Shown: piece by piece, positions 1-42,594 of the stretch | How positions within the stretch are numbered: the stretch's first letter is position 1 | Layout of the letters: each line of letters opens with the position of its first letter | Source of the DNA: Escherichia coli | Lineage (GTDB): Bacteria > Pseudomonadota > Gammaproteobacteria > Enterobacterales > Enterobacteriaceae | Strand: one strand, 5' to 3' | DNA length: 64,000 nt | NCBI RefSeq assembly: GCF_016903815.1 | Contig: NZ_CP069973.1 | Notes under the pieces: model-generated | Database searches by the model: none | What the model saw: only the letters and a program-made list of their open reading frames with translations | Told to the model about the DNA's origin: nothing | Translations under genes and position numbers: made by a program

Positions 1-1087
1 CCCGTGAACTCAGCCTGTATGAATCACAGCTCTACAACTGGCGCAGTAAACAGCAAAATCAGCAGACGTCTTCTGAACGTGAACTGGAGATGTCTACCGA
101 GATTGCACGTCTCAAACGCCAGCTGGCAGAACGGGATGAAGAGCTGGCTATCCTCCAAAAGGCCGCGACATACTTCGCGAAGCGCCTGAAATGAAGTATG
201 TCTTTATTGAAAAACATCAGGCTGAGTTCAGCATCAAAGCAATGTGCCGCGTGCTCCGGGTGGCCCGCAGCGGCTGGTATACGTGGTGTCAGCGGCGGAC
301 AAGGATAAGCACGCGTCAGCAGTTCCGCCAACACTGCGACAGCGTTGTCCTCGCGGCTTTTACCCGGTCAAAACAGCGTTACGGTGCCCCACGCCTGACG
401 GATGAACTGCGTGCTCAGGGTTACCCCTTTAACGTAAAAACCGTGGCGGCAAGCCTGCGCCGTCAGGGACTGAGGGCAAAGGCCTCCCGGAAGTTCAGCC
501 CGGTCAGCTACCGCGCACACGGCCTGCCTGTGTCAGAAAATCTGTTGGAGCAGGATTTTTACGCCAGTGGCCCGAACCAGAAGTGGGCAGGAGACATCAC
601 GTACTTACGTACAGATGAAGGCTGGCTGTATCTGGCAGTGGTCATTGACCTGTGGTCACGTGCCGTTATTGGCTGGTCAATGTCGCCACGCATGACGGCG
701 CAACTGGCCTGCGATGCCCTGCAGATGGCGCTGTGGCGGCGTAAGAGGCCCCGGAACGTTATCGTTCACACGGACCGTGGAGGCCAGTACTGTTCAGCAG
801 ATTATCAGGCGCAACTGAAGCGGCATAATCTGCGTGGAAGTATGAGCGCAAAAGGTTGCTGCTACGATAATGCCTGCGTGGAAAGCTTCTTTCATTCGCT
901 GAAAGTGGAATGTATCCATGGAGAACACTTTATCAGCCGGGAAATAATGCGGGCAACGGTGTTTAATTATATCGAATGTGATTACAATCGGTGGCGGCGG
1001 CACAGTTGGTGTGGCGGCCTCAGTCCGGAACAATTTGAAAACCAGAACCTCGCTTATGCCTGTGTCCATATTACGTGGGTAGGATCA
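1..1087 (+). mobile_element. IS3: IS3 insertion sequence, 5' part cut by window edge; right inverted repeat ends ...CCATATTACGTGGGTAGGATCA at 1087
   Basis: orfA/orfB protein and DNA match recalled IS3 (InsE/InsF); terminal IR recognised at 1066-1087; window starts about 170 bp inside the element. Confidence 0.85.
3..194 (+). CDS. insE: IS3 OrfA (InsE) transposase N-terminal subunit, 5'-truncated by window start
   Basis: Frame 3 reads [63 protein letters not shown] then TGA at 192-194; overlaps orfB start as expected for the -1 frameshift arrangement. Confidence 0.8.
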
Positions 1088-1117
1088 GAACTCCATCCAG
1101 TCGTTTGGGGTTGCTAA
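191..1117 (+). CDS. insF: IS3 OrfB (InsF) DDE transposase; the recalled native stop position (1055-1057) reads TAT here, so the ORF runs 20 codons further, through the IS end into flanking DNA
   Basis: 308-aa [35 protein letters not shown]... identical over the recalled 288 aa of InsF apart from one K/Q difference; DDE integrase core ([18 protein letters not shown]). Confidence 0.85.
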
Positions 1118-1664
1118 TGACGTCCTGCATCCGCTTAATCTGGTCGGGCGTAGACATATAATCCCACAGGGTGAGCAGAACCTTTTTTGCGGCTACACTA
1201 TTTCCCTGATCTGATACTAATGCCATATAGCCCCATAAACTATCCCTCAGCCAGACACCATCATAGTGGGTTTCTGCCGCTGTTTTGTCATCTTCGAAAG
1301 TAGAAGCAAGAATAAATGTTCCCCAGGGTTTCTCCGTCAACGTTAACTTTCGTGTGTTTTCTGTTAATGTTAACAACCCTTGAATTTCGTCTTTGGTATA
1401 GTGGCTCTTTATTTCATTTTTTAATTTGGCTGAGTGAATCAAAAGACGATAATTAGGATACTTATCTGGATTTAACGATAAATAACTTTTATCTGTTGCT
1501 GCCCCCGTGGAATTAAGAATGTTAAATACAGATTCACTCGTCACTTCTGCCCCTGTCGCCTGGCATGTGCCGCACGAAAATATACCAGCGAGCAGAAGAG
1601 TTAATGCAGATTTCCCTTTCATAAAATATTCCATCAATCGTTTGTTAAAAGCGTAGATAACCAC
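1088..1664 (-). pseudogene. Putative secreted/lipoprotein gene (possibly the K-12 ygeQ-like gene of the glyU-adjacent island), C-terminally truncated by the IS3 insertion
   Basis: ORF MKGKSALTLLLAGIFSCGTCQATGAEV... with N-terminal signal peptide; reading frame runs straight into the IS3 right end at 1087, last residues are IS-derived; identity of the family not verified. Confidence 0.5.
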
Positions 1665-1859
1665 TTATTTAACAACTTGAAAATAAGGTGTTTTACCTGG
1701 GTTGTTACAAAAGGATTGCATTGCGTAAATGCTTTTTATTTACAACAAAATGGGGAAGTATTACGGCGATTGCGAAAAGTCTGAAGCGATTGAATTAAGA
1801 TAATATAGAAAATCGGATACAACAAAAATGGCAGGTTGATGAGGTGAAGATAAATTGAT

Positions 1860-2011: not shown

Positions 2012-2791
2012 TCAGCATTTTGGCTTGCTGCCCTGAGGCGGCAAGTAACGTAGCGGATCAATTGCCGTTGCACGGTAACGAATCTGGAAATGCAGGCGAA
2101 CAGATGCCGCATCCGTGCTCCCCATAGTGGCGATTTTTTGCCCAGTCTTCACGCTTTGCCCATTATTTACCAGCATCGTGTCATTATGGGCGTAAGCCGT
2201 AATGTAATCTTCACTGTGTTTAATCATGATGAGATTACCGTAGCCACGCAGCTGGTTGCCCACATACACCACCTTTCCTGCACCCGCGGCGTAAATAGGT
2301 GTACCCCGTGGAGCTGAGATATCAATCCCTTTATTGCCGCCATCTGCTGTCGAATACGGCATGATAACTTTCCCTGTCGTTGGCCATAACCAACAACGTT
2401 GCCCTACTGGCGGCCAGGATGATTTCGGTACCGCTGATGACGGTGTAACCGATGCGGTTTTGGTCGTTGATTTGGCGGTTGATTTACGTGTAATACTGCT
2501 ACTTTTCGCCCCACCCAGTTTTAGTTTCTGACCAACTTCAATGGTGTAAGGGGGGGAAATGCCGTTCAGTCGCGCCAGTTCTTTTACGCTGGTTCCCGTG
2601 GTGCGCGAAATACGATATAGCGTATCCCCCCGTTTCACGGTGTAAACGGAGCCGGAATACGTTCCTGTATCGGATGATTTGCTACCCGAACAGCCCGCCA
2701 AAAGCAGTCCAACCGATAACAACATCACGATACCCAGAGATTTTTTATTCAGGCGTCCCGCACTCAAAATCTTTCCTCGCTTAAAAAACAA
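2012..2791 (-). CDS. ygeR: LysM-domain M23-family peptidase lipoprotein YgeR (start codon uncertain; K-12 protein is a few residues shorter than the ORF)
   Basis: ORF with lipobox LLAGCSGS, LysM motif (YTVKRGDTLYRISRTTG), C-terminal M23 peptidase domain (GIDISAPRGTPIYAAGAGKVVYVG...HNDTMLV). Confidence 0.85.
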   Translation of the reverse strand: MFFKRGKILSAGRLNKKSLGIVMLLSVGLLLAGCSGSKSSDTGTYSGSVYTVKRGDTLYRISRTTGTSVKELARLNGISPPYTIEVGQKLKLGGAKSSSITRKSTAKSTTKTASVTPSSAVPKSSWPPVGQRCWLWPTTGKVIMPYSTADGGNKGIDISAPRGTPIYAAGAGKVVYVGNQLRGYGNLIMIKHSEDYITAYAHNDTMLVNNGQSVKTGQKIATMGSTDAASVRLHFQIRYRATAIDPLRYLPPQGSKPKC

Positions 2792-2893
2792 GACGCCTTA
2801 TCATAGCAGCCAGCCTCTTGATACCCAATCTCTTGCTTCTGGAAAAACGTGGTAATAGAGAAAGAGGTTAATTTCATTGGTAATGACTCCAAC

Positions 2894-3397
2894 TTATTGA
2901 TAGTGTTTTATGTTCAGATAATGCCCGATGACTTTGTCATGCAGCTCCACCGATTTTGAGAACGACAGCGACTTCCGTCCCAGCCGTGCCAGGTGCTGCC
3001 TCAGATTCAGGTTATGCCGCTCAATTCGCTGCGTATATCGCTTGCTGATTACGTGCAGCTTTCCCTTCAGGCGGGATTCATACAGCGGCCAGCCATCCGT
3101 CATCCATATCACCACGTCAAAGGGTGACAGCAGGCTCATAAGACGCCCCAGCGTCGCCATAGTGCGTTCACCGAATACGTGCGCAACAACCGTCTTCCGG
3201 AGCCTGTCATACGCGTAAAACAGCCAGCGCTGGCGCGATTTAGCCCCGACATAGCCCCACTGTCCGTCCATTTCCGCGCAGACGATGACGTCACTGCCCG
3301 GCTGTATGCGCGAGGTTACCGACTGCGGCCTGAGTTTTTTAAGTGACGTAAAATCGTGTTGAGGCCAACGCCCATAATGCGGGCTGTTGCCCGGCAT
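2894..3397 (-). CDS. insB: IS1 InsB (transposase C-terminal part, expressed as InsAB' by -1 frameshift)
   Basis: 167-aa [29 protein letters not shown]... matching IS1 InsB; A6C slippery motif TTAAAAAACTC on minus strand at 3331-3342. Confidence 0.9.
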
Positions 3398-3591
3398 CCA
3401 ACGCCATTCATGGCCATATCAATGATTTTCTGGTGCGTACCGGGTTGAGAAGCGGTGTAAGTGAACTGCAGTTGCCATGTTTTACGGCAGTGAGAGCAGA
3501 GATAGCGCTGATGTCCGGCGGTGCTTTTGCCGTTACGCACCACCCCGTCAGTAGCTGAACAGGAGGGACAGCTGATAGAAACAGAAGCCAC
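3316..3591 (-). CDS. insA: IS1 InsA (DNA-binding transposition inhibitor / transposase N-terminal part)
   Basis: 91-aa [45 protein letters not shown]... zinc-finger-like CxxC...CxxC, matches IS1 InsA. Confidence 0.9.
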
Positions 3592-3918
3592 TGGAGCACC
3601 TCAAAAACACCATCATACACTAAATCAGTAAGTTGGCAGCATCACCAAGAGCGCTATCCAGATAAAAACGATTAAATGCGAGAGTGCGACATGCCAGAAT
3701 GATTAATGAAATATCAATATGAGAAAATTACAGATAATTTCATTGTCAGGTTCTCTTCTCATTTTCGTGGTTTAACCACGATTATGTGATTGCCTCCGCA
3801 ATTCCTGTCTCTAACTCCCCTTCCTCGCAAAAACTGGCACTCCACGAGCATGTGTTTAGACAGTTTCATTAACGTAAACGGTTGCTTTTTACTCTGGCGG
3901 GCGAAAGGAGAAACACTG

Positions 3919-5367
3919 ATGAGCGCCATAGATTCCCAACTTCCCTCATCTTCTGGGCAAGACCGCCCAACTGATGAGGTTGACCGCATATTATCACCAG
4001 GAAAGCTGATCATACTCGGTCTGCAACACGTCCTTGTCATGTACGCAGGTGCAGTCGCTGTTCCTCTTATGATTGGTGACCGACTGGGCCTCTCAAAAGA
4101 AGCTATTGCGATGCTCATTAGCTCGGATCTCTTTTGCTGCGGGATCGTCACATTATTGCAATGTATCGGTATCGGCCGCTTTATGGGGATCCGCCTGCCG
4201 GTGATTATGTCGGTGACCTTTGCTGCTGTAACACCAATGATAGCCATTGGGATGAACCCGGATATCGGCCTGCTGGGGATATTTGGTGCCACTATCGCCG
4301 CGGGTTTTATCACCACATTATTAGCGCCACTTATCGGTCGCTTGATGCCTTTATTCCCGCCACTGGTTACCGGTGTGGTTATTACTTCTATCGGGCTTAG
4401 CATCATTCAGGTGGGCATTGACTGGGCCGCCGGAGGTAAAGGGAATCCGCAATATGGTAATCCCGTTTATTTAGGTATCTCCTTTGCCGTCTTAATTTTT
4501 ATCTTGCTCATTACTCGCTATGCGAAAGGATTTATGTCCAACGTCGCAGTATTACTGGGGATTGTATTTGGCTTTTTACTTTCGTGGATGATGAATGAAG
4601 TCAATTTATCCGGGCTACATGATGCTTCATGGTTTGCGATTGTTACGCCGATGTCGTTTGGTATGCCGATTTTCGATCCCGTTTCCATTCTGACCATGAC
4701 TGCCGTGTTAATCATCGTGTTTATCGAGTCGATGGGGATGTTCCTGGCACTGGGTGAAATAGTCGGTCGTAAACTCTCTTCGCACGATATTATTCGCGGG
4801 CTGCGTGTCGATGGCGTAGGGACAATGATAGGCGGCACGTTTAACAGCTTCCCCCACACGTCATTTTCACAAAACGTTGGCCTGGTTAGCGTGACGCGCG
4901 TTCATAGCCGCTGGGTGTGTATTTCTTCGGGAATTATATTAATCCTGTTTGGCATGGTGCCAAAAATGGCGGTGCTGGTAGCCTCCATTCCGCAATTTGT
5001 GCTGGGCGGCGCTGGTCTAGTGATGTTCGGCATGGTACTGGCGACAGGGATTCGAATTTTGTCGCGCTGTAACTACACCACCAACCGTTACAACCTCTAT
5101 ATTGTGGCGATCAGTCTCGGCGTTGGCATGACTCCGACGCTCTCTCACGATTTCTTTTCTAAGTTACCGGCCGTACTGCAACCGCTGCTACATAGCGGCA
5201 TTATGCTCGCAACCCTTAGCGCCGTTGTGCTGAACGTCTTCTTTAATGGCTATCAGCATCATGCTGACCTGGTGAAGGAATCCGTCTCTGATAAAGATTT
5301 AAAAGTCAGGACAGTACGTATGTGGCTTCTGATGCGCAAGCTGAAGAAAAATGAGCATGGAGAATAA
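3919..5367 (+). CDS. uacT: NCS2/NAT-family uric acid:H+ symporter UacT (YgfU); true start is the internal Met MSAIDSQLP, not the 525-aa ORF start
   Basis: 482-aa polytopic membrane protein with NAT signature region; matches recalled YgfU; extended ORF N-terminus is non-coding leader. Confidence 0.88.
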   Translation: MSAIDSQLPSSSGQDRPTDEVDRILSPGKLIILGLQHVLVMYAGAVAVPLMIGDRLGLSKEAIAMLISSDLFCCGIVTLLQCIGIGRFMGIRLPVIMSVTFAAVTPMIAIGMNPDIGLLGIFGATIAAGFITTLLAPLIGRLMPLFPPLVTGVVITSIGLSIIQVGIDWAAGGKGNPQYGNPVYLGISFAVLIFILLITRYAKGFMSNVAVLLGIVFGFLLSWMMNEVNLSGLHDASWFAIVTPMSFGMPIFDPVSILTMTAVLIIVFIESMGMFLALGEIVGRKLSSHDIIRGLRVDGVGTMIGGTFNSFPHTSFSQNVGLVSVTRVHSRWVCISSGIILILFGMVPKMAVLVASIPQFVLGGAGLVMFGMVLATGIRILSRCNYTTNRYNLYIVAISLGVGMTPTLSHDFFSKLPAVLQPLLHSGIMLATLSAVVLNVFFNGYQHHADLVKESVSDKDLKVRTVRMWLLMRKLKKNEHGE

Positions 5368-42237: not shown

Positions 42238-42431
42238 TCAATATTCCTTTTCAACTGACTCAAAATGGAGAAATACACTCCGCCGCCTTATGACGGGCAG
42301 TCTGACAAGGGTAAACAATAAAGCATAATTTTGCCAAATAGATCACAGATTTCTCATCTGAATCACCTTGCTTTTGGCGAAAAAATCCCCGCAGAGCGGG
42401 GCTCAGACAGATATCAATGTGCGCTTTGTCA

Positions 42432-42529
42432 TGCCGGATGCGGCGTGAACGCCTTATCCGGCCTACAAAAACCTGCAAATTCAATATATTGCAGGATACG
42501 TGTAGGCCTGATAAGCGTAGCGCATCAGG
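42432..42529. repeat. BIME: two inverted REP units with central spacer, mscS-fbaA intergenic
   Basis: GCCGGATGCGGCGTGAACGCCTTATCCGGCCTAC ... GTAGGCCTGATAAGCGTAGCGCATCAGGC. Confidence 0.8.
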
Positions 42530-42594
42530 CAATTTTGCTTTTGGCGAAAAAAAGACCCGCAGAGCGGGCCTTGAGATAAGCAGAAAGGAATATC

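Follow-up and report, generated by a model that had tools for sequence, protein, structure and literature searches.

Adjacent deletions mediated by IS1 were reportedly described by Reif and Saedler in 1975 in the gal region of Escherichia coli K-12, as laboratory events selected in gal. The locus analysed here resembles these gal deletions in that the deletion starts exactly at an end of the IS1, the IS1 is retained, the other endpoint is variable and there is no target duplication. It differs from them in being a natural loss of 31 kb (xdh to ygfT) that is present in 34 complete genomes, including known ST405 strains, whereas the gal deletions are laboratory events. Cooper et al. (2001) are said to have found parallel IS150-associated losses of the rbs operon in Lenski's long-term evolution experiment, with fixed and variable endpoints; insertion followed by recombination was reportedly the route, with a high local mutation rate possibly combined with selection. 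The likeness to our case lies in the repeated independent deletion of one catabolic operon with an IS at each junction, but IS150 is an element of the IS3 family and not an IS1, and the rbs losses occurred in a laboratory population and not in natural lineages. The event described below is therefore of a known kind, an ordinary IS-driven genome reduction, to which we add the exact coordinates, the derived state, the occurrence in a group that contains ST405 strains and the recurrence of the loss.

The region concerned carries the genes of an anaerobic reductive uric-acid pathway, which involves XdhD, YgfK, SsnA, ring-cleavage and ureido-cleavage enzymes and YgeX (bioRxiv 10.1101/2025.05.19.654654; see also 10.1101/2025.04.24.650524). 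The anaerobic urate genes of the papers on this cluster (xdhD, ygfK, ssnA, hyuA, ygeW/X/Y, yqeA and others; 10.1101/2025.05.19.654654; 10.1101/2025.04.24.650524; 10.1101/2022.07.24.501321) are those deleted here. One of these studies (10.1101/2025.04.24.650524) examined ten E. coli strains and found the cluster highly conserved, whereas about 5% of the complete genomes in the present survey lack it, ST405 strains among them.

In MG1655 (NC_000913.3 2,999,136-3,032,815), actS (ygeR) and uacT (ygfU) are separated by 21 genes: xdhA, xdhB, xdhC, ygeV, ygeW, ygeX, ygeY, hyuA, yqeA, yqeB, yqeC, mocA, ygfK, ssnA, ygfM, xdhD, xanQ, guaD, ghxQ, ygfS and ygfT. A first reading of the locus made from the letters alone (hereafter the sequence-only reading) had named this gene content correctly and put its length at about 30 kb. 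The window, i.e. the whole stretch of 64,000 nucleotides analysed here, is collinear with MG1655 on both flanks (about 98.6–98.7% identity), with actS, a tRNA-Gly gene, uacT, yqfG, idi and lysS in equal order. However, blastn of the window against the MG1655 locus shows that an IS1 replaces exactly K-12 3,000,003-3,031,094, i.e. 31,092 bp comprising all 21 genes from xdhA through ygfT (Table 1). The alignment confirms the deleted interval proposed earlier and places its ends flush with the IS1 ends. The last nine bases before the element, AATTTCATT (2870-2878), correspond to K-12 2999994-3000002 and the first nine after it, AAGAGCGCT (3647-3655), to K-12 3031095-3031103; there is no microhomology between the left and right K-12 breakpoints. 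The IS1 lies 272 bp from the uacT ATG (window 3919), as the sequence-only reading had it, and 111 bp from actS if the RefSeq ATG start is used (2767; 251 aa). The 88 bp given earlier for this second distance does not hold for the annotated gene, because it had been counted from the TTG at 2791, upstream of the RefSeq ATG, where the longest actS ORF begins (259 aa). The compact actS-uacT arrangement is derived, the cluster having been deleted rather than translocated or inverted, and it was almost certainly IS1 that caused this deletion in an ancestor of the strains carrying the allele.

Table 1. Features of the actS-uacT region in the window (window coordinates) and other deletion alleles of the cluster (left and right breakpoints in K-12 coordinates)
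Feature or genome	Coordinates	Strand or IS1 orientation	Basis or remark
IS3-family OrfB remnant (ORF 191-1117, +) adjoining truncated ygeQ (1088-1769)	1..1769		
actS (ygeR), amidase activator, intact	2012..2767	-	251 aa by RefSeq start; annotation of identical sequence in strain 7/2; aligns to K-12 b2865
actS-xdhA intergenic remainder, 111 bp	2768..2878		left breakpoint; blastn to MG1655 stops at K-12 3,000,002
IS1 (IS1A type), complete	2879..3646	-	length, inverted repeats, NF033558 matches, RefSeq annotation
IRR of IS1	2879-2901		terminal inverted repeat
insB' frame	2894..3397	-	167-aa ORF; joined to insA via -1 frameshift at TTAAAAAACTC
insA ORF	3316..3591	-	91 aa, GTG start; IS1/IS1595 zinc-binding domain and N-terminal part of NF033558
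IRL of IS1	3624-3646		terminal inverted repeat
ygfT-uacT intergenic remainder, 272 of 435 bp	3647..3918		right breakpoint; blastn to MG1655 restarts at K-12 3,031,095
uacT (ygfU), urate:H+ symporter, intact	3919..5367	+	pathway genes now gone from beside it
YJ6, ETEC6	left 3000002, right 3031113	IS1(-)	
KH_005	left ~3000088, right 3031004	IS1(+)	left end from junction sequence; blastn extends K-12 match to 3000104
AST217	left 3000144, right 3031055	IS1(+)	
23CRST013	left 3000063, right 3031029	IS1(+)	
N-01	left 3000128, right 3031029	IS1(+)	
Z226-6	left 3000221, right 3031004	IS1(-)	
EC24	left 3000150, right 3030948	IS1(-)	
SC516	left 3000365, right 3030980	IS1(-)	
1217KP	left 3000588, right 3030980	IS1(-)	
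EA7	left 3000064, right 3031836	IS1(-)	reaches into uacT
13P484A, XJW9B277	left 3004881, right 3031094	IS1(-)	xdhABC kept
22F46	left 3000749, right 3031713		no IS bridge

The element between actS and uacT reads from insA to insB on the minus strand. The sequence-only reading had recognised in it a complete IS1 of 768 bp, which is borne out by its length, its terminal inverted repeats (18 of 23 positions match), its ORFs and its annotation. In a profile search, both ORFs match NCBIfam NF033558 ('IS1 family transposase'). The insB' product covers profile positions 75-199 with 141.7 bits, above the curated cut-off of 100 bits, while the insA product covers positions 1-81 with 91.3 bits, a score under this whole-protein cut-off that is expected because the product is partial. 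The A6C frameshift motif (3332-3342, minus strand) occurs only once within the window, and RefSeq annotates an intact transposase of the IS1A family, produced by programmed frameshifting, for the identical sequence in strain 7/2. The IS1 looks active. No further copy of IS1 is found elsewhere in the window. The two 9-mers that flank the element (aatttcatt at 2870-2878 and aagagcgct at 3647-3655) differ and no 8-9 bp direct repeat was found at the IS1 ends when the flanking sequences were compared, so that the IS1 of the window has no target-site duplication. As had been concluded from the unmatched 9-mers, this argues against a simple insertion; it does not argue against the element being an IS1.

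Further deletion alleles were identified by mapping onto K-12 coordinates those genomes in which actS and uacT lie close together. The probes lay 150-500 bp from the junctions of the window, so the clustering of endpoints in the two intergenic regions is partly built into the search. At least 13 distinct alleles were found, including that of the window, and 12 of them are bridged by an IS1, in either orientation (Table 1); a target-site duplication was found at none of the IS1-bridged alleles mapped. The cluster has thus been removed many times independently, usually by IS1. Not every loss is IS1-bridged, as 22F46 carries an IS-free deletion that fuses xdhA to uacT (at 3247/3248 of the 22F46 locus) with no obvious microhomology. 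A partial-loss allele, found in at least 11 genomes (the 13P484A/XJW9B277 group), extends from ygeV to ygfT and has its left end inside ygeV. Descent of its right junction from that of the window was considered and rejected: this junction is 1 bp off (3031094), the IS1 is a variant with 97.1% identity and the left end is in ygeV, and the allele therefore stems from an independent event.

YJ6 and ETEC6 have a left junction identical to that of the window but lack 18 more bp at the IRL-side junction. As they are without these 18 bp, they cannot be ancestral to the allele of the window, and they are best read as showing a second, small IS1-adjacent deletion nested on the first. A mirror image of this pattern is seen on the other side in 23CRST013 and N-01, which have their right junction in common and left ends 65 bp apart. 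Between YJ6 and the window, there is no difference from 3665 to about 10000, there are four up to 14000 and the divergence is about 1.2% thereafter; leftward, the first difference is at 2493, and they become dense beyond it, with about 20 from 1100 to 2000. The identity pattern is thus mosaic, and the IS1-bridged allele appears to lie within a tract of about 11 kb common to the window and YJ6/ETEC6, for which descent or recombination is the simplest explanation. The deletion allele may have been transferred by recombination between the clone of the window and the YJ6/ETEC6 lineage. The IS1 copies of YJ6 and the window, although otherwise co-inherited, differ at five places clustered in a patch of 240 bp (window 3146-3385); among them, a 1-bp indel shifts the reading frame in YJ6. 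The clustering resembles gene conversion by a further copy of IS1 and not clock-like divergence.

Simple insertions of IS1 into the same spacers were confirmed in three genomes. In APEC-O117H42, a different IS1 variant (94% identity) sits at the left site of the window with the orientation found there; AATTTCATT is duplicated (9 bp) and xdhA is intact. What this insertion shows is a preference for AATTTCATT as a target, and not that it was the first site used. OW968288 carries a simple IS1 in the left intergenic region (3000019-3000027, 9-bp duplication CATCAGCAA) and strain 200112 carries one in the ygfT-uacT spacer (9-bp duplication GCCTCCGCA). Distinct deletion alleles outnumber these confirmed insertions and those deduced from the geometry of the searches taken together. 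A search of the 5426 complete genomes for an IS1 at 3031095 next to an intact ygfT side gave no exact match, no locus opened for inspection has an intact cluster bracketed by two IS1 copies and no direct intermediate was found on the ST405 haplotype.

The route by which the window lost the cluster may be pictured as a one-step intramolecular transposition, the classical IS1 'adjacent deletion'. An IS1 would first have inserted into one of the two AT-richer intergenic regions. It would then have transposed intramolecularly into the other intergenic region, one of its ends retaining the original junction and the other being joined to the new target. The intervening 31,092 bp would have left as a circle, with the IS1 remaining as a scar. 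The flanking 9-mers would come from two different targets and would therefore be unmatched. We infer both the dependence on the transposase and which end of the IS1 was the original one. We lean, with modest confidence, towards this one-step route because deletion alleles are found more often than simple insertions, because no opened locus has an IS1 on each side of an intact cluster and because nested small deletions are seen at IS1 ends. Its end product is however identical to that of a two-step route and does not by itself tell which was taken.

In this two-step alternative, which is quite possible but which we consider somewhat less probable, each intergenic region would have received a separate IS1, the two having the same orientation, and RecA-dependent homologous recombination between them would have left a hybrid IS1 with half of each duplication. 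Both spacers do receive simple IS1 insertions (the left one in APEC-O117H42 and OW968288, the right one in strain 200112), and the genomes concerned are rich in IS1 copies, since IS1-containing queries matched 11-18 places per record in the clone of the window and about 40 in YJ6, ETEC6, Z226-6 and 13P484A. The product would be indistinguishable from the junction observed, and a pattern with one fixed and one variable end arises by this route too, as is reported for IS150 and the rbs operon. However, the expected precursors, i.e. an intact cluster with IS1 on both sides or an IS1 at the right site of the window with ygfT intact, are those that were sought in vain, and states with a single insertion are rarer than deletion alleles, the opposite of what this route predicts unless the loss is strongly selected. 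To account for the extra 18-bp loss in YJ6/ETEC6, it would also require a further insertion, 18 bp away from an IS1 already present.

Some endpoints recur. In clearly independent events, endpoint 3031004 was used with IS1 in both orientations and 3030980 with IS1 variants 98.8% and 96.5% identical to that of the window; 3000002 was used with two IS1 variants. By a rough birthday-type estimate, made without a tool, such coincidences are only marginally beyond chance and are suggestive at most. The A+T content of the two intergenic regions is 58.7% and 60.9%, compared with 49.2% in the deleted interval. That these regions are a hot spot for IS1 is suggestive only. A sequence resembling an IS1 end in the actS-xdhA spacer was tried as a cause of such a hot spot and gave no evidence for it, matches to the inverted repeat at 14 or more of 23 positions being common (74 in the 46-kb K-12 locus). 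A broader scenario, in which the AT-richer flanking spacers would be preferred targets of IS1 and make the uric-acid/purine module fragile, its loss would be favoured in some lineages (e.g. the extraintestinal multidrug-resistant ST405) and the deletion allele would spread between lineages by homologous recombination, as the 11-kb tract common to YJ6 and ETEC6 suggests, appears unlikely as a whole.

The derived state of the compact arrangement follows from its distribution. In 5148 of the 5426 complete E. coli genomes (95%), a single place covers 80% or more of the initial 24.9 kb of the interval; about 5% lack the cluster, wholly or for the most part. When the actS-side and uacT-side flanks joined without IS1 were used as a query against these 5426 genomes, the flanks were found close together in 40, all of which have an IS1 between them; an IS1-free actS-uacT junction was found in none of the 5426. 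The closest IS1-free haplotype, EC2641, differs from the window by a single mismatch over 6.3 kb of the right flank and shares its structure on the left side (IS3 remnant and truncated ygeQ), but its cluster is intact and both sites are empty (…aatttcatt/tggcaaaggg… and …gaccaa/aagagcgct…, the slash marking the breakpoint). IS1-free relatives with ygeR beside uacT, which the sequence-only reading had named as the finding that would speak against a loss, are thus lacking among the complete genomes, and the IS1-free EC2641 has the whole cluster. One could imagine that the compact arrangement is ancestral, other E. coli having acquired the 31-kb cluster as an island and the IS1 being a later simple insertion with a duplication that has since decayed. 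The genomes that lack all or most of the cluster are the one point open to this reading, which is otherwise extremely improbable. The cluster is held at the actS-uacT locus by 95% of the genomes species-wide, including EC2641 with its near-identical flanks, the IS1 ends are those of the missing interval to the base and the two 9-mers have no similarity that would hint at a decayed repeat. Moreover, the other cluster-less genomes have different breakpoints and are therefore the result of independent losses.

A relocation of the cluster was checked by adding 800 bp of ssnA to the right-flank query and running the search again. The number of matching places per chromosome was unchanged at two in all 34 genomes that carry the allele of the window, i.e. 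there is no relocated copy, and unchanged at one in YJ6 and ETEC6, while it rose in the positive controls (from one to two in EC2641 and from two to three in O121 strains). In the whole collection (5425 genomes), the ssnA segment added 5177 places (15883 - 10706), which leaves about 250 genomes without it; only one additional plasmid place appeared. The flanks of the window also lie in their native orientation to each other, with a single IS1 between them. IS1 is multicopy and such repeats often break or misjoin assemblies, but a misjoin of contigs at the IS1, or a move of the cluster to another place, can be dismissed with near certainty, as 34 complete genomes, each assembled independently, have this pair of junctions and the ssnA probe finds no copy elsewhere in them, whereas the controls gain a place. 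Taken as a whole, the alignment to K-12, the EC2641 haplotype and the ssnA probe support what had been proposed from the letters alone, i.e. a loss of the cluster through IS1 with the uric acid permease gene kept.

Two further results go beyond this proposal: the loss recurs across E. coli, and the exact pair of junctions is found in a group of 34 genomes, among the 5426 complete ones, that includes known ST405 strains. Within this group, the allele is carried by strains of the multidrug-resistant and clinically important ST405 lineage, a link that is made through WCHEC4533 and WCHEC96200. WCHEC96200 occurs in a paper on ST405 isolates (PMC5762679), and a second ST405 paper (PMC9037040) names both strains in its section on comparative genomes. 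The actS-IS1-uacT junction provides a simple marker, by PCR or in silico, for the 34-genome group. In the literature searched, no link between ST405 and xdh was found, and the papers retrieved with IS1, xdhA and deletion deal, by their titles and abstracts, with unrelated topics (e.g. PMC12416847).

From the published functions of the missing genes, a strain with this allele would be devoid of the reductive uric-acid degradation pathway (XdhD, YgfK, SsnA, HyuA, YgeW/X/Y and YqeA). It would also lack XdhABC, guanine deaminase, XanQ, GhxQ, YgfS/T (YgfT has the annotation of a protein for formate-dependent uric-acid utilisation), MocA and YgeV, a sigma-54 activator, while keeping the urate importer UacT. 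The UacT protein of the window (WP_001295374.1) is the same as in cluster-intact strains such as EC2641. The pathway is discussed for gut urate disposal and engineered uricolytic probiotics; strains without the cluster should be unable to use the anaerobic urate pathway, besides having neither guanine deaminase nor MocA. In several other cluster-less strains, uacT is itself damaged. In ETEC6, uacT is interrupted by a second IS1 (3593-4360 of the ETEC6 locus), which is flanked by a 9-bp duplication of K-12 3031929-3031937; the deletions of EA7 and 22F46 remove the 5' end of uacT, and NT1N31 and NT1N34 have an apparent IS1 in this gene. Repeated damage to an orphan uacT in cluster-less strains fits relaxed selection.

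The left part of the window has a history of its own. The OrfB of the IS3-family remnant has an aberrant C-terminal tail, the truncated ygeQ begins at K-12 2998294 and the ETT2-region genes that lie to the left of ygeQ in K-12 are absent from the window. The ETT2 region was lost in an earlier IS-associated event, separate from the deletion of the xdh-ygfT cluster. In EC2641, the same junction of the IS3 remnant with ygeQ is accompanied by an IS30, while in YJ6 and ETEC6 ygeQ is truncated at about 2998298 and lies instead beside a pseudogene of an HTH regulator. Elsewhere in the window, a 127-bp stretch (42419-42543) is 87% identical to the yqeA-yqeB intergenic region of K-12, inside the deleted cluster, and is probably a dispersed repeat of the REP type. 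The ygfX gene is intact in the window and a pseudogene in strain 7/2.
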